DNA of 64,000 bases from an uncultured SAR86 cluster bacterium (GCA_902604535.1 CACKZK010000004.1:14620-78619), one strand, 5' to 3'; positions 4,417-57,199 are shown, counted from the first letter of the stretch. A program made the numbers and translations. The notes: a model not told the origin generated them from the letters alone.

Positions 4417-5075
4417 TAGCTTTCCTTGTCTTTTTCTTTAACTTTTTTATCTATTAACTCGCCTCTAAATATCCACACCTTCACACCAATAATCCCGTAA
4501 GTAGTTTTTGCTTCGGCTAAGCCGTAATCAACATCTGCTCTTAATGTATGAAGAGGCACTCTCCCTTCTTTATGCCACTCAGATCTAGCAATCTCAGCTC
4601 CACCTAATCTTCCTGAAACTTTAATTTTGACACCTAGTGCTCCCTGTCTCATAGTATTTTGAGCAGCTCTCTTAATAACCCTTCTGAACATTGCTCTTTT
4701 TTCAAGTTGAAGTGATATGTTTGCAGCAACAAGCTGAGCATCAAGATCAGGTTTTCTTATTTCTTGAATGTTAAGACTGACCGGCACATTCATTATTTGT
4801 GTCAGCTTCTCTCTCAAACGATCGATATCTTCACCTCTTTTACCAATGATCATTCCCGGCCTTGCAGTATGAATGGTGACTTTTGCACTCTGAGCAGGCC
4901 TTTCTATATGGATTTTGCTAACAAATGCATTATCAAGTTCTTTTTTAAGAAACTCTCTAACTTGAAAATCATTGAAAAGAATCTCTCTATATTTATCTTT
5001 TTCTGCAAACCATACAGAGTTATGATCTCTGGATATGCCTAGTCTGATTCCTACTGGATTAACCTTTTGTCCCAC
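4416..5075 (-). CDS. rpsC: 30S ribosomal protein S3
   Basis: 219 aa. GTG start (cac at 5073-5075). [13 protein letters not shown] is the S3 N-terminus. Confidence 0.97.
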
Positions 5076-5084
5076 TTTATCTCC

Positions 5085-5417
5085 TTAATTACTTAATTTT
5101 AGGTTTATATGACACGACTTTTTTTCGATTCGGTCTGCTCTTCCTCTGGCTCTTGCCCTTATTCTTTTCATGATTAGGGCTTCATCAACAGAAATATGAC
5201 TGATGTATAATGTATCAATGTCTAAACCATAATTATTTTCAGCAGAAGAAATTGCAGAATCCAAAAGCTTTTTCAGATTTCTAGAACCGGACTTTGGACT
5301 AAAAATAAGAATATCTAAGGCTTCATCAACTTTTTTTCCACGAATTTGATCTGCCAAAAGCCTGATCTTAGATGCTGAGGACTTAAATCTTGATAATTTT
5401 GCTGATACTTCTGTCAT
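5085..5417 (-). CDS. rplV: 50S ribosomal protein L22
   Basis: 110 aa. ...KIRLLADQIRGKKVDEALDIL... is L22-like. Operon position fits. Confidence 0.95.
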   Translation of the reverse strand: MTEVSAKLSRFKSSASKIRLLADQIRGKKVDEALDILIFSPKSGSRNLKKLLDSAISSAENNYGLDIDTLYISHISVDEALIMKRIRARARGRADRIEKKSCHINLKLSN

Positions 5418-5686
5418 TAAACTTTCCTATCCCCTGAGTGTTGTTTAAAAGTTCTAGTAGGAACAAATTCACCGAGCTTATGTCCAACCATATCCTCTTG
5501 AATGAATATGGGAACGTGCTGTCTTCCGTTATGGATGGAAATTGTTAAGCCAACCATTTCTGGAGAGATCAAGGATCTCCTAGACCAAGTTTTGATAGGC
5601 CTCTTATCTTTGGACTCAACAGCCTTTGAGACTTTATCCATCAAATGATGATCTATAAATGGACCTTTTTTAATAGAGCGCGGCAT
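5417..5686 (-). CDS. rpsS: 30S ribosomal protein S19
   Basis: 89 aa. [15 protein letters not shown] is the S19 N-terminus. Confidence 0.97.
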
Positions 5687-5688
5687 TT

Positions 5689-6513
5689 CTATTTCTTCCT
5701 TCTTCTAATAATTTGTTTATCTGTTCTCTTATTGCTTCTTGTTCTAAATCCTTTTGTTGGCACACCCCAAGGTGAGACTGGGTGTCTCCCCCCAGAAGTT
5801 CTTCCTTCTCCACCGCCATGAGGGTGGTCTATTGGGTTCATTGCCACACCCCTCACAGTAGGTCTAACCCCTAACCATCTTTTAGCTCCTGCTTTTCCGA
5901 TAGATTTCAAAGAATGCTCAGAATTAGATACGGTTCCAAGAACAGCTCTACACTCGACAGGCACTCTTCTTACCTCACCACTTTTCATTCTTAGGGTTGC
6001 TGTATTTCCTTCTTTTGCGACAAACTGAACATAAGATCCAGCACTTCTTGCTATTTGAGCGCCTTTTTTTGGCTTTAGCTCGACACAGTGAACAGTAGAT
6101 CCAACGGGTATAGCATTAAGATCAAGCGCATTACCCACTTTTATTGGAGCGTCGTTACCAGATTGAACAGTATCTCCTTGTTGAAGGCCAGAAGGAGAAA
6201 TTATGTACCTCCGTTCTCCATCTGAATATAACAATAAAGCTATGTGAGCAGATCTGTTAGGATCATATTCTATTCTTTCGACAATTGCAGGTATCCCATC
6301 TTTTGTTCTCTTAAAGTCAATGATTCTGTAATGTTGTTTATGTCCACCGCCTTGATGTCTTACGGTTATTCTTCCTCTATTATTTCTTCCTCCATTTTTA
6401 CTTTTTGTGGTCAATAGAGGTGCATGAGGTTTTCCTTTATGAATGTTCTGATCTACCTGGAAGCTTCTAAATCTTCTGCCCGCAGACGTTGGTTTTGCTT
6501 TAACTACAGTCAT
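5689..6513 (-). CDS. rplB: 50S ribosomal protein L2
   Basis: 274 aa. [14 protein letters not shown] motif. Confidence 0.97.
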
Positions 6514-49947: not shown

Positions 49948-50721
49948 ATGTTATCTAGTAACAAGTACTATTTTATCTTTAATCTGCCTTTTTTACTGAT
50001 CTTGATGAGCTTATCTTCATCTTGTGCAAATAAAGATGAAACAATTGAAAGAGTTCTGCTAGAAAAAGAACTATTTGATCAAGCTCAAAATAGATTAAGA
50101 TCAGGTAATTTTGCCGCTGCCGCAATGAGCTTAGAAATGCTTGAGGCTAGATATCCTTTTGGACGATTTGCGACTCAAGCCCAATCTGAATTAATTTATG
50201 CTTACTTTAAATCAGCAAACTATGATGCTGCTATTTCTGCTGCTGATAGATTCATAAGTTTGCACCCCAATCATCCCAACGTTGATTATGCTTACTATTT
50301 AAAAGGAATGTCTGGCTACACTGCTGATATGTCAATTTTTAATCCAAATATGATCCTTGAAGATGCCGCCTCGAAGAGAGATCTAAATCAAGCAAAAAAA
50401 TCTTTCTCTGACCTAAGTGACTTTTTACTTAGATTTCCAGATAGCGATTATGCGGATCAAGCAAGACAACGTATGGTTTTCTTAAGAAACTTAGTTGCAA
50501 AAAAGGAAATTTATGTTGCGACTTTTTATATGGAAAGAAAAGCTTATGTTGCAGCATTAAATAGAGCTAATTACGTGATAGAGCATCTGCCAAATAGCTC
50601 CCAAGTTGAGCAAGCTCTAGAGATAAAAATTCAAGCATACAAAGAACTAAATCAATCAGATCTAGCCGACATAACTCAGGATTTACTCAAAGCTTTCAAA
50701 GAAGAAAAAATCAAATCCTAA
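49948..50721 (+). CDS. bamD: Outer membrane protein assembly factor BamD (lipoprotein)
   Basis: 257 aa. Lipobox LSSSC after a hydrophobic signal, TPR-like repeats, and rluD-bamD divergent synteny. Confidence 0.85.
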   Translation: MLSSNKYYFIFNLPFLLILMSLSSSCANKDETIERVLLEKELFDQAQNRLRSGNFAAAAMSLEMLEARYPFGRFATQAQSELIYAYFKSANYDAAISAADRFISLHPNHPNVDYAYYLKGMSGYTADMSIFNPNMILEDAASKRDLNQAKKSFSDLSDFLLRFPDSDYADQARQRMVFLRNLVAKKEIYVATFYMERKAYVAALNRANYVIEHLPNSSQVEQALEIKIQAYKELNQSDLADITQDLLKAFKEEKIKS

Positions 50722-50909
50722 TGGCTATATTAATTTCAGTTTTAATCTTTATCGGAATAATTGTAGGTCTAGCTCGTCTTTTAGGAGAGAGTTCGGTTGA
50801 TATTAGTGAAGATCAATCGAGCATGGTCAAATGTATAGAATGTGATGTTTACTTTCCCATGTTTGAGGCTAGGAAAACATCAAGGGGTTGGATCTGTAAA
50901 GATCATTAA
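50721..50909 (+). CDS. Small membrane-anchored Cys-rich protein (PP0621-family-like)
   Basis: 62 aa. N-terminal TM helix, then CIECDVYFP...WICKDH (CxxC...CxxH). TAATG-coupled to bamD. I recall the P. putida PP0621 gene sitting next to bamD. Confidence 0.45.
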   Translation: MAILISVLIFIGIIVGLARLLGESSVDISEDQSSMVKCIECDVYFPMFEARKTSRGWICKDH

Positions 50910-53218
50910 AATTTATATCTTAGTTTCAGAATAAATTGATCAGAGTAAGTAGTATTCCATCCAGTTGAATATAAATCCCCAAAAGATCTTATATCATTAT
51001 CATCATTATCATAATAATATCCGCCTCTTGTATAAACTGCATAAAAATTGGATAAAGGAGACAGTTCATACCTATACCTTATCTGGAAAGCGACCTGACT
51101 TAATTCAAATGGATTAAGAGATCCATCATAATTAATCATCTTCCCGTCAGTGCTTACATAGTAAGGATCTGGATCGTTGGCAGTTAGAGAATAAAATTGA
51201 GCTTTAATTCTTAACTCATGAATATTATTTTTTATCCAACCCAAAGATAAGGATGATGATAGTTTCTTCTTTTTATAATAACCAAACACATTATCAAATT
51301 CGTATTTGACCCAATTTTTATATTCATCATATCTAATGAGAGCAAGATTTAAGTCCAGATCTTGAGAAGGCTTAACAATTGCTCCTAAATTAAAACCCCA
51401 ACCCTCTCCTCTTTTAGAGTTTAAGGGATTATCAAATTTGTAGCCTCCAGATGAACTTTCAATTTTTATGAATGGTATGAAAATTTTCTGTTTTGGTGCT
51501 GAATATCTCATACTCAATAAGTATCCTCCAAGTCTCCTTATGTAAGGGGAATCTGAATAATTTCTTGTTTCAACGAAATCTTTTCCAGGTGACAGAATGC
51601 ACTCACAGAAAATATCAATTGAAGAAAAATCTTTCAAATCCAAATTTAATGATATCCATGCCATCGCTCCGCCATTTATTCCAGATATGCTTCGTTGATG
51701 TCCACTATTCAAATCTAATGTAAGACTTCTAATTAGAGAACTTTCTGAGAAATTGGTTTCTTTGTAAACAGCTGTAATGCCTGTTTCAGCAAAATTTCTC
51801 ATATCTAAGTAACCCATATCATTCATTTCATAGCCTTCATCATAAATACCAAAACCCCAAAGAGCGGAAAACTTTTCTGTAAAGTTTCTTGCTACTCTTC
51901 CTCTAAGAGCTACTCCCTCTGTTGTAGTTGAGTCAGAATCAATATTTGAATAACTTAGAGTCCCTGAGAATCTACTTGATTCATCGAAAGAATAATCAAA
52001 ATCCATTGTATGCACTTGAGCAGACCTAGTTATAGTTGGACGGTCAACATAAGTTAATAGATATCCAATGCGAAGATCATCTAAACTTTTTCTGTACCTA
52101 ATAGACTGGAAATTTCTTCCTTTATAAAATCTACCGTCCCTTTCAAAAGCTGAGAAAATTCCAAATTCGTCATCTGCCTCAGTCTGGGTATATCTTAGGG
52201 CCAAATCTATTTCACTGTATGTTTTTCTTTGAAGGTTACAGCTTGATTCATCTATTTCTGAAGAGCAATTATAGTCTGGTCGAGCACCAATCCTTCTTGT
52301 GTTTATTAAAAAAGAAGTTCTACCTCTTATTTGAAAAAGGTCCTGGTTTTCAGTAAAAAAAGGTCGTTTATCTTCATAAAAGGTCTCAATTGCATCAAAA
52401 CTTACAATAACATCATCACTTTCTACTTGACCAAAATCAGGATTTAAAGTGACATCTAATCTTTTTTCTGAATCTATTGCCCAAAATATTTCTCCACCAA
52501 TTTTATTCTCTTGTTTTCCACTCACCTCTTCCTGAGAAATAGAAATATAAGGAAAGTAATCAACTTGTGAGCTAGAGTTTTTTGCAAAATTTCTTATTTT
52601 TATAGGATGAAATCTTGAGATAAATTTTGTATCAGTCCAATTAATTTTAGGGAAACCATGCCATTCATTTTTAAAAAAATAACCTCTAGATGTCCTAACA
52701 TTTATTTCAATAAATTCTTTATCGGAAGTTTCCAATGGAGCAACATCCCAAGGAATCAAGAATTCAGCAAACCAAGCATCCTTATTTTGAGAAGTTTTAG
52801 CAAACCAAATTGCATCCCAATCTGATGATGGTTGATTTTCATTAGCCCAAACAGCATCTCCGATTGATCCACCCAAAGATACTGCAAAGCTATAGGCTCT
52901 TATGCCGTTTCCGTTGAAGTCTATTGCTAGAAAGGCTCTGTCTGCAGATGCATCCATAACGTCTCTTTTATGAAGCAAAGTTGTTTGATTCTCAATAGGT
53001 TGTTGATAATTTTTAAACCCAAAATATATCCCATCTTTGTTAGCAAAATATAAAACCTCAGTTTCAACCTCTGGAGTAGCATAAGTTAAGGGTTCGGTAA
53101 CAAAAAAAGTATCAATAACGCCTGCAGAATCCCACTCAATTTCATCTAATTTTCCATCAATTACTATTTCCGCTGATAATTGTGTGAAAAAAAATAGAAT
53201 TATTATTTTTCTAATCAT
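50906..53218 (-). CDS. Outer-membrane protein, N-terminal CBM9/DOMON-like domain + DUF5916-type beta-barrel (paralog 1)
   Basis: The track ORF starts at TTG 53275. The ATG at 53218 gives the signal peptide MIRKIIILFFFTQLSAE. IDGKLDEIEWDSA N-domain motif. Long amphipathic-strand C-terminal region ending ...LKLRYKF. The family name is from memory. Confidence 0.65.
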   Translation of the reverse strand: MIRKIIILFFFTQLSAEIVIDGKLDEIEWDSAGVIDTFFVTEPLTYATPEVETEVLYFANKDGIYFGFKNYQQPIENQTTLLHKRDVMDASADRAFLAIDFNGNGIRAYSFAVSLGGSIGDAVWANENQPSSDWDAIWFAKTSQNKDAWFAEFLIPWDVAPLETSDKEFIEINVRTSRGYFFKNEWHGFPKINWTDTKFISRFHPIKIRNFAKNSSSQVDYFPYISISQEEVSGKQENKIGGEIFWAIDSEKRLDVTLNPDFGQVESDDVIVSFDAIETFYEDKRPFFTENQDLFQIRGRTSFLINTRRIGARPDYNCSSEIDESSCNLQRKTYSEIDLALRYTQTEADDEFGIFSAFERDGRFYKGRNFQSIRYRKSLDDLRIGYLLTYVDRPTITRSAQVHTMDFDYSFDESSRFSGTLSYSNIDSDSTTTEGVALRGRVARNFTEKFSALWGFGIYDEGYEMNDMGYLDMRNFAETGITAVYKETNFSESSLIRSLTLDLNSGHQRSISGINGGAMAWISLNLDLKDFSSIDIFCECILSPGKDFVETRNYSDSPYIRRLGGYLLSMRYSAPKQKIFIPFIKIESSSGGYKFDNPLNSKRGEGWGFNLGAIVKPSQDLDLNLALIRYDEYKNWVKYEFDNVFGYYKKKKLSSSLSLGWIKNNIHELRIKAQFYSLTANDPDPYYVSTDGKMINYDGSLNPFELSQVAFQIRYRYELSPLSNFYAVYTRGGYYYDNDDNDIRSFGDLYSTGWNTTYSDQFILKLRYKF

Positions 53219-53375
53219 ATTTATTGCTTTAATGAGTGTTTGAGTCAAATTGAACTTAGAAAAGAAATTGGGCAATATTCTATCTGAATTAATCCGACCA
53301 ATGTTGTAGAAGAATCAATTAATATATTCTGAGAATGAAAATTATAAAGATTTTTAAATTTACTTACGAAGAATT

Positions 53376-55724
53376 TTAGTAAGAAAATCTATATCTTATT
53401 TTCAAAATAAATTGATCTGAGTAAGTTGTATTCCATCCTTTTGTATATAGCCTATCAAATGATGAAGGGACAATTTCAGAGTTGAAGTAATCTCCTCCCC
53501 TAGTATAAACAGCATAAATATGAGACAAAGGTGCCAATTGGTATTTATACCTGATTTGAAATGCCATTTGACTTAGCTCAAATGAATTTAAGCTTGCGCT
53601 CATAGATTTCATTTTTCCATCTGGAGAGACAAAAAAAGCTTCGGGATCCTCTGCTGTTAAACTATAAAATTGAGCTTTAATTCTTAATTCGTGTTTTCCT
53701 TCATATAATCCTAACGAAAAAGAGGATGACAGTTTTTTCTTATGGTAAAAACCAAATACGTTGTCGTATTCGAATTTACTCCAATTTTCATCTTCATCGT
53801 ATCTGATGAGTCCGAAGTTAATATTCAAATTATCTGTCGGTTTAATTGTTGCACCCAAGTTAAAGCCCCAGCCTTTCTCTTTTCTTGAAAACATAGGATC
53901 ATCGAATTCATATCCTGACGATCTACTCTCTAGTTTCACAGAAGGAATGAAAACAAGAGTCTCTGGTGCCTCGTATCTGATTGCAATGGTATACCCACCT
54001 TTATTTCTTATGAAAGGTGCATCAGGAAAACCTCTTGTTTCCATATAATCTTTTCCAGGGTCTAAAAAACACTCGCAGGAAAGTCTTAAAGAAGAGAAAT
54101 CTTTAAAATCAAGGCCTAGGTTCACATTTGCCAAAGATCCGCCGTATATTCCTGAGGCGCTTTTATTAAATCCACCATTTGAATCTATAGTTAAACTTTG
54201 AAGTTGGGAGTTATTTTCAAAGTCAGCTTCTCTATAGTTTGCTACCCATCCAGTAGACATATATTCCTTCATTTCACTATAACCCATATCGTTAAGATCA
54301 TAGCCCTTGCCATAAGATGAAAAAGCCCACAAACCTGAGAATTTTGTCGTAAATTGTTTCGAAACTAAAGCTCTGATTGCAGATCCATTTTTAGGTAAAA
54401 TTGGATCATCAATGTCTGAGTGGCTTAACATTCCAAAAAAACGAGTATCTTGATCGATGAAATATTCGTAATCTAAAGTATGAACTTGAGCAGATCTTGA
54501 TATATTTGGTTTATCAGCATAAGTTAATAAATAGCCTACTTTTCCTTTATTGAAATTTCTTCTGTAACGAATAGCTTGGAAATTTCTAGCTTTATAAATA
54601 TCCGTTCCCTTCTCAAAAGCAGAGAAAATACCAAACTCATTGATTGCACCGGATTGGGTATACCTTAAAGCAAGATCAATATCACTTGTAGATGAATTAT
54701 CTTTAAGGCATTTATCAGCAAGTCTTTCGTCTAATTGATTGCAGTCATAATCTGGCGCTGCACCAATTCTTCTAGTATTGACAAGATAGGTTCTCCAGCC
54801 AGTTATTTGAAATAAGTTTTGATTTTCAGTGAAGAAAGGTCTCTTATCTTCATAATATGTTTCAGTTGAATCAAAATTAACAATAACATCATCACTTTCT
54901 ACTTGGCCAAAATCAGGATTTATAGTTACATCTAATCTCTTTTCAGCATCTATAGACCAAAATATTTCACCACCTATTTTATTGATTTGTTCATCTGTAA
55001 CTTGCTCTTGTGATATTGAAATATAGGGATAGAAATCGGCGCCGCTTTTTGTATCCCGAGCAAAATTCTTTACTTTTATTGGTTCAAATTTAGATAAAAA
55101 AGCTGAGTCAGTACTCCAAATAGCAGGAAAACTTGACCATTCATTACTGAGAAAATCAAAAGTATTGAATCTTATTTTGATCTCTATTTCGTCTTCAGAA
55201 GATGAGCTAATGGGAGCTACATCCCAAGGTATTAAAAACTCAGAGTACCAAGCCTCACTATCTTTGCTAGTTTTTACGAACCAAACCCCATCCCAATCTT
55301 GATTGAACTGATTTTCATTCGAAACAGTTCCATCGCCAACAGAATCTCCTAGGGATGTTCCAAAAGAAAATCCGTTATTACCGTTTCCCACAAAATCTAT
55401 AATGATAAAATTTCTATCTCCATCTACCATCCATGCATCTCTCTTATGTTGAATTGGGGTTTGTCTCTCTGAAGGTTTAAAATTTTTAAATCCAAAGTAA
55501 ATTCCTTTTTCATTGGCAAAATATAAAACTTCAATTTTATATTTTGATTTTTTCAAGATGTTTGGCTGAACAATTAAAAGGTCATCAATTGACTTAGCTG
55601 AATTCCATTCTTCTTCATCAAGAATCCCATCGATGAGAATATCACCTATTGAAAAGCTAGGAATGAGGAGTAAGTATAGAAAAATTATGAAATTTTTCTT
55701 AAGTTTCAATTTGGAATAAATCAA
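53376..55724 (-). CDS. Outer-membrane protein, N-terminal CBM9/DOMON-like domain + DUF5916-type beta-barrel (paralog 2)
   Basis: 782 aa, co-linear with paralog 1 along its whole length. No ATG start: TTG at 55724, or at 55709 giving MKLKKNFIIFLYLLLIPSFSIG. Ends ...LKIRYRFSY. Confidence 0.65.
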   Translation of the reverse strand: MIYSKLKLKKNFIIFLYLLLIPSFSIGDILIDGILDEEEWNSAKSIDDLLIVQPNILKKSKYKIEVLYFANEKGIYFGFKNFKPSERQTPIQHKRDAWMVDGDRNFIIIDFVGNGNNGFSFGTSLGDSVGDGTVSNENQFNQDWDGVWFVKTSKDSEAWYSEFLIPWDVAPISSSSEDEIEIKIRFNTFDFLSNEWSSFPAIWSTDSAFLSKFEPIKVKNFARDTKSGADFYPYISISQEQVTDEQINKIGGEIFWSIDAEKRLDVTINPDFGQVESDDVIVNFDSTETYYEDKRPFFTENQNLFQITGWRTYLVNTRRIGAAPDYDCNQLDERLADKCLKDNSSTSDIDLALRYTQSGAINEFGIFSAFEKGTDIYKARNFQAIRYRRNFNKGKVGYLLTYADKPNISRSAQVHTLDYEYFIDQDTRFFGMLSHSDIDDPILPKNGSAIRALVSKQFTTKFSGLWAFSSYGKGYDLNDMGYSEMKEYMSTGWVANYREADFENNSQLQSLTIDSNGGFNKSASGIYGGSLANVNLGLDFKDFSSLRLSCECFLDPGKDYMETRGFPDAPFIRNKGGYTIAIRYEAPETLVFIPSVKLESRSSGYEFDDPMFSRKEKGWGFNLGATIKPTDNLNINFGLIRYDEDENWSKFEYDNVFGFYHKKKLSSSFSLGLYEGKHELRIKAQFYSLTAEDPEAFFVSPDGKMKSMSASLNSFELSQMAFQIRYKYQLAPLSHIYAVYTRGGDYFNSEIVPSSFDRLYTKGWNTTYSDQFILKIRYRFSY

Positions 55725-55741
55725 GAGGATTTTTCGCAGAT

Positions 55742-56140
55742 TTATTCTACGAAGATCGTAATTTTATCGGAAATGACCGGCTCTCTGTGTGGAATGTGGA
55801 GATAATTTCCCATTAAAAGTTGCAAGGTTCTTTTTCCCTTGGGTAATTCAAGAACTGTTTGAGTCTGACCTTTACCAAAGTGAATGTGGTTTTTATCAGC
55901 TGGAATTGGTTTTGAGAGATTAGGTAAATTTTCTAAATCAACAAGGAGATGATGATGACCAGTATTAGGAAAATCTATTCCTGCAGGAGCCACTCCCATT
56001 CCTGATAACCCAAAAACTATTTTTACAGGTCCTTTTAATGTTGCACCATCCTTAGGCTCAATAAAATAAAGCTCAATCTCGCTTGACGATACAAAGCTTG
56101 AGCAAAAAACAAAAATTAATAAATGAAATACTTTAAACAT
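55742..56140 (-). CDS. Secreted DUF4399-like protein with His cluster
   Basis: 132 aa. Signal peptide MFKVFHLLIFVFCSSFVSSSE. NTGHHHLLVD and HIHFGKGQT motifs as I recall for DUF4399. Its start overlaps the upstream gene by 8 nt. Confidence 0.55.
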   Translation of the reverse strand: MFKVFHLLIFVFCSSFVSSSEIELYFIEPKDGATLKGPVKIVFGLSGMGVAPAGIDFPNTGHHHLLVDLENLPNLSKPIPADKNHIHFGKGQTQTVLELPKGKRTLQLLMGNYLHIPHREPVISDKITIFVE

Positions 56141-56591
56141 ATTTTCCTTCTTGATATATCAGGGGTAACGAAGCCTCATTATGAATTAAATCTTTGATCT
56201 CACCAATGAAGATAGAGTGAGTAGTGTCTTCCATGATTTCTTTTAAGTTGCAGAAGAGATTTGATTGTGCATTTTCCAAATATGGGGTCTCCCCCTTTTT
56301 AAGCCAAGAATCATTAGAAAATCTTTCATTAATTTTCTCTGAATTACTACAAATATCAGCCACATGTTCTTGTTCCTTACTTAATAAATTAAGACAAAAA
56401 GATTCAGTAGTTTTTAAGAAGTCGTGCATAGCTGCAGATTTATTTATACAAACAAGCATTCTTGGTGGGTTAGCTGATAAAGAGGCTACTGAAGAAACAG
56501 TCATTGCCTCTTTCGAAACTGAATTTCCTGAAGAAATTACATAAACTGTTTGAGCTTGAGTTCTTAAAATATTTAGAAATATATCTTGCAT
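56133..56591 (-). CDS. Flavin reductase-like (FMN-binding split-barrel) domain protein
   Basis: 152 aa. MTVSSVASLSANPPRMLVCINKSAAMHDFL and HSIFIGEI...LPLIYQEGKY parallel flavin-reductase-domain patterns. No signal peptide. Confidence 0.7.
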   Translation of the reverse strand: MQDIFLNILRTQAQTVYVISSGNSVSKEAMTVSSVASLSANPPRMLVCINKSAAMHDFLKTTESFCLNLLSKEQEHVADICSNSEKINERFSNDSWLKKGETPYLENAQSNLFCNLKEIMEDTTHSIFIGEIKDLIHNEASLPLIYQEGKYV

Positions 56592-56629: not shown

Positions 56630-57199
56630 ATGAGCAATAAAGCAATAAAAGGATCTTTCAGAATAATAGGCGGAAAATACAAAGGAAGAAAATTTGAATT
56701 CATTCCTTCTGATGTTCTGAGACCAACTCCAGACAGGATAAGAGAAACACTATTTAATTGGCTTGGACAAATTGTTGGTAATAAAAACTGTTTAGATATA
56801 TTTGCTGGAACTGGATCCTTAGGACTTGAGTCCTTATCAAGAGGAGCAGATAAAGTTACATTCGTTGAAAAAAATTCTCATCATTTAAATAAAATTAAAG
56901 AGTACGTTGAGAACATTAAAGCTGACAAAGATGTCTTTATAATTAAAAAAGATGTACTGACTTGGTTGGATGAAACAAATCAAGAGTTTGATTTAATATT
57001 TGTTGATCCGCCTTTTTATAAACAGCTTGCTGAGAAAGTCCTTTTAAAAATTAGATCAAATTCCCTGCTTTCTAAATTCGGGAAAATTTATCTGGAAGTA
57101 GAAAAAGAGTTGGATTTAAATTTTTTGGTGAAGGATTGGGACATCGTAAAAGAGACTAAATCTGGCAAAAAGCAGTATTTATTACTCAAAGAAAAATAG
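56630..57199 (+). CDS. rsmD: 16S rRNA (guanine966-N2)-methyltransferase
   Basis: 189 aa. RIIGGKYKGRKF...LRPTPDRIRETLFNWL, DIFAGTGSLGLESLSRGA and the DPPF motif. Confidence 0.9.
   Translation: MSNKAIKGSFRIIGGKYKGRKFEFIPSDVLRPTPDRIRETLFNWLGQIVGNKNCLDIFAGTGSLGLESLSRGADKVTFVEKNSHHLNKIKEYVENIKADKDVFIIKKDVLTWLDETNQEFDLIFVDPPFYKQLAEKVLLKIRSNSLLSKFGKIYLEVEKELDLNFLVKDWDIVKETKSGKKQYLLLKEK

Follow-up and report, generated by a model that had tools for sequence, protein, structure and literature searches.

We analyzed a window of 64,000 nucleotides from an uncultured SAR86 cluster bacterium (GCA_902604535.1, CACKZK010000004.1:14620-78619), in which four consecutive minus-strand genes encode a flavin-reductase-fold protein, a DUF4399 protein, and two large DUF5916 proteins, here termed DUF5916-A and DUF5916-B. 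SAR86, among the most abundant bacterial groups of the surface ocean, retains two or three of the ~2.3-kb DUF5916 genes despite its streamlined genome. An initial annotation, made from the sequence alone, had taken the four genes to be the parts of a candidate trans-envelope redox or metal/cofactor-acquisition route. We find four genuine genes, but not a demonstrated machine or envelope system; their products are additional members of known, uncharacterized families, and we argue below that the two DUF5916 proteins are probably stand-alone outer-membrane barrels that contact glycan.

Gene content and packing of the locus

The four minus-strand open reading frames (ORFs) are present in the ORF list of the window where the initial annotation had placed them (Table 1), and the sequence bears out the junctions it had described for this packed unit. 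The reductase and DUF4399 genes overlap by 8 nt (ATGTTTAA), a gap of 17 nt separates the DUF4399 gene from that of DUF5916-A, and the DUF5916 genes are separated from each other by a 157-nt spacer. For DUF5916-A the start may lie 5 codons further downstream, since one relative is called at 777 residues, and the shorter form would widen the gap to the DUF4399 gene from 17 to 32 nt. The frame of DUF5916-B stays open further upstream, to a TTG at 53275; the ATG start is preferred because it fits both the predicted signal peptide and the alignment with the paralogue.

The window as a whole has a GC content of ~34% and is 94% coding. Among its 53 same-strand gene pairs, the gap is at most 20 nt in 34, there is an overlap in 11, and the median gap is 6 nt. 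Tight packing is the norm in this genome; the cluster does not rise above this background, and its packing is by itself uninformative here. Co-transcription of the four genes is possible, and functional coupling among them is not demonstrated.

Table 1. Features of the DUF5916 locus and its conserved flanks (nucleotide positions are those of the 64-kb window; residue numbers are those of DUF5916-A)
Feature	Position	Strand	Basis
Flavin-reductase-fold protein, 152 residues	56133-56591	-	Pfam PF01613
DUF4399 protein, 132 residues, predicted secreted	55742-56140	-	Pfam PF14347
DUF5916-A, 782 residues, TTG start	53376-55724	-	Pfam PF19313
Predicted CBM9-like beta-sandwich of DUF5916-A	~residues 27-225	-	AlphaFold2 model
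Predicted outer-membrane barrel of DUF5916-A, ~24 strands	residues 226-782	-	AlphaFold2 model
Most conserved family segment, DUF5916-A residues 269-348	54681-54920	-	Alignments, model
Spacer between DUF5916-A and DUF5916-B, 157 nt	53219-53375	-	Sequence, consensus and Rfam scans
DUF5916-B, 770 residues from ATG	50906-53218	-	Pfam PF19313, tandem paralogue of DUF5916-A
bamD (YfiO), conserved flank, convergent with DUF5916-B	49948-50721	+	Pfam YfiO, E = 5e-63
rsmD-type methyltransferase, conserved flank	56630-57199	+	Pfam Cons_hypoth95, E = 2e-51

Architecture and conservation of the DUF5916 proteins

Both large proteins match the Pfam family PF19313 above its cut-off of 22.6 bits, DUF5916-A with 109.9 bits (E = 1.9e-31) and DUF5916-B with 118.7 bits (E = 4.1e-34), and the C-terminal part on its own still gives 48.5 bits. 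The two are 56% identical over their full length and share one architecture, as tandem paralogues. Hydropathy gives each a hydrophobic, signal-like N terminus and no later hydrophobic helices, and their C termini (RYKF and RYRFSY) end in an aromatic residue. An AlphaFold2 model of DUF5916-A, built with 39 homologues (predicted local distance difference test (pLDDT) score of 83.4, predicted template modeling (pTM) score of 0.78), opens with a signal helix, which is followed by a beta-sandwich (about residues 30-220) and then by ~24 long antiparallel strands within residues 228-777. Foldseek comparison of this model with the PDB returned large outer-membrane barrels only, among them MtrB, BtuB, other TonB-dependent transporters, LptD, and SprA, at 7-10% identity and template modeling (TM) scores of at most 0.45; PDB sequence searches with the single proteins and with the family profile matched no chain. 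Taken together, the signal peptide, the modeled barrel, the aromatic beta-signal, and the lack of transmembrane helices support the assignment of both proteins as outer-membrane barrels, as the initial annotation had proposed from the strand-rich C-terminal region and the RYKF and RYRFSY ends. Its statement that the secreted families have no defined function also holds, given the empty PDB searches and a literature in which we found no functional study of either DUF5916 or DUF4399.

The resemblance of DUF5916-A to particular solved barrels is limited. LptD consists of a periplasmic N-terminal beta-jellyroll and a 26-strand outer-membrane barrel, and DUF5916-A likewise has a beta-sandwich followed by a very large modeled barrel. 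This is an analogy only, however, with 7-10% identity, TM scores of ~0.22-0.29, no lptE-like partner, and an N-terminal domain that is CBM9-like and not an Lpt jellyroll. TonB-dependent transporters, which have a 22-strand barrel and an N-terminal plug, also combine a large barrel with an N-terminal globular domain and are numerous among the Foldseek matches; DUF5916 differs from them in its ~24 predicted strands and its CBM9-like sandwich, and we rejected this identity because the window DUF5916 proteins have no Plug or TonB_dep_Rec match in Pfam. The best structural match among solved barrels is MtrB (6r2q_B; TMq 0.38, TMt 0.45), the porin of the MtrCAB trans-outer-membrane electron conduit, which is the known model nearest to the proposed trans-envelope redox idea. 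The identity to MtrB is 9%, however, the four window proteins have no CxxCH motif, no cytochrome genes flank the cluster, and the Pfam-checked neighbors at related loci include no multiheme cytochrome gene. A porin-cytochrome conduit of the MtrAB type was rejected because no multiheme cytochrome partner is encoded with the barrel.

The closest likeness is to other proteins of PF19313, often annotated as "DUF5916 domain-containing" or "carbohydrate binding family 9 domain-containing," which match over the full length with the same architecture and motifs; the window members are no different in kind, being from SAR86 and tandemly duplicated. The family comprises 14,426 clusters at 50% identity (E ≤ 1e-3), and an N-terminal domain followed by a barrel is its usual architecture. 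The window copies share 35-43% identity with those of other SAR86 lineages and 22-30% with members from Xanthomonadales, and both carry the family-wide invariant motifs PDFGQVE.D and KRPFF and the C-terminal K.RYRF. The strongest conservation does not lie in the strands but in an 80-residue insert past barrel strand 3 (residues 269-348 of DUF5916-A, strand-free by DSSP of the model) and in scattered charges of the barrel. Within the insert, the columns of NPDFGQVESD ... ETxxxDKRPFFTEN ... NTRRIG are invariant or nearly so across the family alignments. In and around the insert, the charged or polar residues strictly conserved among relatives at 22-33% identity are D271, E276, D278, E288, R295, R319, E371, D418, D560, Q723, and R725. 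With the N terminus predicted to be periplasmic, the insert would be an extracellular loop by topology, one that would fold into the lumen.

Given this pattern, we considered whether DUF5916 might be an enzyme embedded in the outer membrane, for example a glycan or lipid hydrolase, with the insert as its active site and the CBM9-like domain targeting the substrate. Strictly conserved charged residues in and around an insert, retained at 22-33% identity, are what such an enzyme would show, and CBM9 modules are classically found attached to glycoside hydrolases (CAZy). However, a plug that contacts its barrel would be expected to conserve such charges just as well, and neither the PDB nor the Foldseek searches gave any sequence or fold similarity to a known outer-membrane enzyme or hydrolase. 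We consider an enzyme improbable, more so than any other reading weighed here.

The N-terminal domains of the window DUF5916 proteins match neither CBM9 nor DOMON in Pfam, even at E ≤ 10. Among 47 diverse family representatives, 12 match CBM9_1 (PF06452), with a best E of 2.1e-7, and the label CBM9-like is acceptable at the level of the family, being indirectly supported for the window proteins through these relatives. The residues of the domain that are conserved across the family are Trp (W40, W144, W148, W159, and W167) and Asp/Glu. No His, Met, Lys, or Cys column reaches 80% conservation, and Y76, Y119, and M172 are conserved at only 53-74%. A heme-binding DOMON of the cellobiose or ethylbenzene dehydrogenase type was rejected because conserved axial ligands (Met/His or Met/Lys) are lacking. 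The likeness to CBM9 (the Xyn10A module of Thermotoga maritima) and to DOMON-like domains lies in the beta-sandwich and in the conserved Trp and Asp, a pattern that would be compatible with binding of sugar and Ca2+ as in CBM9; the window proteins differ in falling below the model, in having no PDB match by profile, and in having no conserved heme ligands. Of the CBM9-like/DOMON domain initially proposed, what stands is the CBM9 likeness of the family, carried by 12 of 47 relatives; the window proteins are themselves unmatched, and heme binding is unsupported.

Further evidence on this half of the protein comes from longer members of the family. N-terminal extensions of 170-330 residues occur in 13 of the 150 best family representatives. 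The peptidoglycan-binding domain SPOR passes its Pfam cut-off in five of the 13 (P0321, P0325, P0333, P0344, and P0348) and gives a weak match in three more (P0340, P0355, and P0362). From the N terminus, these extended members have a signal peptide, then SPOR, and then a long linker rich in Pro, Asp, and Glu, which leads to the CBM9-like domain and the barrel. Their clusters are genuine, with up to 45 members and contigs of up to 5.8 Mb. Because SPOR sits ahead of the CBM9-like domain in these fusions, the N-terminal half of DUF5916 is predicted to be periplasmic, and the fusions would link the family, or at least some of its members, to the cell wall, pointing to contact with glycan or peptidoglycan. 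There is a precedent in Shewanella, whose sensor kinase PghK has a periplasmic CBM9-like domain that has been proposed to sense glycan fragments of peptidoglycan (bioRxiv 10.1101/2023.05.05.539549).

Two further arrangements each come from a single genome. In Colwellia chukchiensis (L082, 6532-7950), a DUF5916 gene has a 1-nt overlap at its start with a gene for a histidine kinase, which merits comparison with the PghK-type CBM9 sensor kinases of marine gammaproteobacteria. In the 1836-residue protein P0309, an AcrB-type resistance-nodulation-division (RND) pump runs in frame into a DUF5916 protein with its own signal peptide still in place; the fusion is probably a read-through or gene-call artifact, and it marks an adjacency of RND pump and DUF5916 genes in one genome.

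The smaller proteins and the conservation of the gene order

The reductase matches Flavin_Reduct (PF01613; E = 4.5e-35, 121.5 bits against a cut-off of 27), its residues 11-151 aligning with profile positions 3-149, and hydropathy gives it no signal peptide, which places it in the cytoplasm. The NCBIfam equivalogs RutF (90 against 254.75), HpaC (85 against 205.95), and FerA (48 against 260) were rejected, and the closest solved relative is 2r0x, a "possible flavin reductase" (E = 1.6e-18). The protein is a generic short Flavin_Reduct member: it matches PF01613 over its full length, as do the HpaC/RutF/StyB-type short flavin reductases, but it misses the equivalog cut-offs and has no monooxygenase gene beside it. 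A two-component flavin monooxygenase system was rejected on the latter ground, the neighbors being rsmD, DUF4399, and DUF5916 here and likewise in SAR86 relatives.

The DUF4399 protein covers positions 1-91 of the 91 in PF14347 (E = 6.2e-35, 119.9 bits against a cut-off of 28) and has a signal-like hydrophobic N terminus and no later hydrophobic helix by hydropathy. Its residues His62, His63, His64, His85, His87, His115, and His118, which fall in the motifs GHHHLL.D, H.HFG.GQT, and H.PH, are invariant in 37 sequences, and His64, His87, and His115 are still invariant when an archaeal copy is added. This His cluster is most likely a metal site. AlphaFold2 predicts a seven-strand Ig/FN3-like beta-sandwich with a pLDDT of 79 (~88 inside the domain). 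Foldseek returned only generic FN3/Ig sandwiches for this model, none below E 1e-3, and gave no support for a fold like that of Cu,Zn superoxide dismutase or of the cupredoxins; neither the single protein nor the family profile found a sequence relative in the PDB. The protein shares 78-98% identity with its counterparts in close SAR86 relatives, 48% with that of the divergent lineage L070, and 50-57% with copies from Burkholderiales and Alphaproteobacteria. As a PF14347 protein it has a single domain and comes from a marine gammaproteobacterium; elsewhere in the family, tandem-domain forms occur. For both smaller proteins, Pfam, hydropathy, and the family-wide invariance agree with what had been read from the sequence at the outset, namely a cytoplasmic flavin reductase set apart from the secreted proteins and a DUF4399 protein with a striking His cluster.

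Every SAR86 locus of this type that we recovered (L001, L004-L011, L070, L076, and L083) has the same order, with rsmD on one side, then the reductase, DUF4399 where it is present, and one or two copies of DUF5916, and then a small ORF and bamD. The order is kept even where the SAR86 DUF5916 is only 35-43% identical to the window copies. The DUF4399 gene is absent from the same locus in L001, L004, and L005. The whole neighborhood (rho, trxA, ilvD ... bamD, rluD, ilvBN) is syntenic in SAR86 over the same divergence, and because of this the conserved adjacency is inseparable from general synteny.

The copy number of DUF5916 at this locus varies from one to two among close SAR86 relatives (L083, L006, L009, L011, and L076), and the single DUF5916 of L083 (7995-10334) is 62% identical to both window copies (50906-55724), with flanking genes at ~90%, a pattern that suggests rapid turnover or replacement typical of surface-exposed proteins. 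A second SAR86 paralogue locus (L002, 8001-10316; L003, 2256-4571; L079) encodes DUF5916 proteins at 39-41% identity beside a peptidase S9 gene and a conserved 154-residue protein with no Pfam match, and contains neither the reductase nor DUF4399.

Such turnover, together with the one or two copies at the locus and the further paralogue locus elsewhere, is what might be expected of substrate-specific uptake channels or porins that were duplicated and diversified in a nutrient-scavenging, streamlined bacterium, with DUF4399 as a periplasmic binding or metal partner in one sublineage. The large modeled barrel with its conserved lumen insert would fit this, and one DUF5916 relative is encoded directly upstream of a TonB-dependent receptor gene. 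We nevertheless regard an uptake channel as unlikely: the window DUF5916 proteins lack a TonB box and give neither a Plug nor a porin signal in Pfam, the Pfam scan of neighbors found no recurring transport genes nearby, and the SPOR fusions suggest a link to the cell wall and not to nutrients.

Outside SAR86, the association of the three families disappears. A genome scan for DUF5916 with an 18-sequence alignment as the query yielded 80 loci, mostly from Xanthomonadales and Steroidobacterales, the remainder including Porticoccaceae, Cellvibrionaceae, Colwellia, Gemmatimonadota, Acidobacteriota, and Rhodothermales. Neighboring genes in these loci were taken from gene calls filtered on GC content at third codon positions (GC3) and then scanned against Pfam. 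By phmmer, the reductase and DUF4399 are present in three SAR86 loci only among the 80, and the ~75 non-SAR86 loci show no link of DUF5916 to Flavin_Reduct or DUF4399. The 133 immediate neighbors gave SET (15), BamD (5), and DUF4399 (3) in Pfam and nothing recurrent beyond clade-specific synteny, and ten tightly linked same-strand neighbors of DUF5916 in other taxa were all different. The DUF5916 family normally stands alone, with no conserved partner.

The same holds when the search starts from DUF4399, for which nine non-SAR86 contexts contained neither DUF5916 nor Flavin_Reduct. The neighbors there are katG (Sulfitobacter), a rubredoxin gene (Mycetohabitans), sigma/anti-sigma genes with DUF4384 and OmpA, FGE-sulfatase with caspase, or unannotated genes. 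On contigs of the soil/Bradyrhizobium type (L095 and L098-L101, ~5001-5880), DUF4399 is a tandem two-domain protein of ~285 residues, repeatedly found beside FGE-sulfatase-domain and caspase (Peptidase_C14) genes. The initial annotation had named, beforehand, a lack of conserved co-occurrence in other genomes as refuting its proposal; we find the three families together in SAR86 only, at one syntenic locus between rsmD and bamD, and the proposal thus fails the check that it had set for itself.

These comparisons bear directly on the proposal of a single trans-envelope redox or metal/cofactor route, in which the cytoplasmic reductase, DUF4399 as a periplasmic His-rich carrier, and DUF5916 as an outer-membrane DOMON-barrel would act together. 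Beyond the lack of co-occurrence in the ~75 DUF5916 and nine DUF4399 loci outside SAR86, the cluster includes no inner-membrane component and no CxxCH motif, the N-terminal domain has none of the conserved His, Met, or Lys ligands that heme would need, and DUF4399 is dispensable at this SAR86 locus. The co-directional, tight, and partly overlapping genes kept in several SAR86 lineages would favor such a route, but this adjacency cannot be told apart from the synteny of the whole neighborhood, and the packing is the genome norm. Also in its favor, the His cluster of DUF4399 is invariant; the best Foldseek TM score is to MtrB, but with a TMq of only 0.38 at 9% identity, and the resemblance of the reductase to FerA-type ferric/flavin reductases is weak and far below the cut-off. 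We find the route very doubtful, and the claim of a trans-envelope redox system should not be carried forward in its present form.

Interpretation and minor features of the locus

The best explanation of the locus is, in our judgment, that of two stand-alone glycan-contacting DUF5916 barrels, a lineage-specific insertion of DUF4399, and a syntenic cytoplasmic reductase, to which we assign a probability of about 0.55. The DUF5916 proteins would be exported by their signal peptides and inserted by the beta-barrel assembly machinery (BAM), via the C-terminal aromatic beta-signal, as barrels of ~24 strands whose lumen would be occupied by the conserved 80-residue insert of acidic and basic residues past strand 3. 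The CBM9-like N-terminal domain would stay in the periplasm and most likely bind a glycan, the probable ligands being peptidoglycan strands or a polysaccharide of the periplasm or envelope. DUF5916 would then be a glycan-contacting barrel of the envelope, with the role of a gated channel, of a tether, or of both. DUF4399 would be a periplasmic beta-sandwich, most likely with a metal site, that was inserted at the locus in part of the SAR86 radiation. The reductase would be a cytoplasmic enzyme of housekeeping type, found beside DUF5916 because the rho-rsmD ... bamD-rluD-ilvBN neighborhood is syntenic in SAR86.

Several points weigh against this explanation. Its glycan contact and periplasmic placement are predictions drawn from sequence and model. 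The CBM9 link of the window proteins is only transitive, and the SPOR fusions are confined to a minority of the family and do not occur in SAR86. The co-directional, tight order of reductase, DUF4399 where present, and DUF5916, with overlaps of 8-11 nt, is kept across SAR86 lineages. Because this order has survived in diverged lineages, we leave some room for a lineage-specific functional link and rate a coupling particular to SAR86 as unlikely to very unlikely, depending on the form in which it is put. We also weighed a joint reading, in which the reductase, DUF4399, and duplicated DUF5916 of SAR86 would make up a lineage-specific metal/redox envelope module, while DUF5916 more broadly would represent unrecognized, very widespread outer-membrane barrels of ~24 strands that touch peptidoglycan or glycan by way of a periplasmic CBM9-like domain, sometimes reinforced by SPOR; this seems to us quite doubtful.

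With more than 14,000 clusters at 50% identity and no solved structure, DUF5916 is a family whose function would fill a gap in envelope biology, since the protein could be a channel, an enzyme, or a tether in contact with glycan or peptidoglycan. Culturable Xanthomonadales offer concrete ways to test this, through the invariant insert and the SPOR fusions.

Some smaller features of the locus complete the description. The rsmD and reductase genes are divergent and lie 38 nt apart, and a Fur-box-like sequence is not evident in this region, which was inspected by eye only. A consensus scan found a weak promoter-like hexamer pair at 53348-53321, in the 157-nt spacer, and no intergenic terminator-like site in the cluster, and Rfam gave no match to a regulatory RNA at the locus. 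The sole terminator-like hairpin of the locus, at 53752-53773 on the minus strand, is inside the DUF5916-A coding region. Antisense ORFs of 95 residues (53761-54048, plus strand) and 106 residues (56224-56544, plus strand) lie within genes and are probably spurious. Between bamD and DUF5916-B, a plus-strand ORF of 62 residues (50721-50909) overlaps the bamD stop by 1 nt and, in convergent orientation, the DUF5916-B stop by 4 nt. Its product has no Pfam match and carries a hydrophobic helix at the N terminus, after which comes CIECDVYFP...WICKDH, a possible zinc-binding motif. The ORF is also called in SAR86 relatives, where it is conserved at 89-100% identity in close ones and 29-37% in distant ones.

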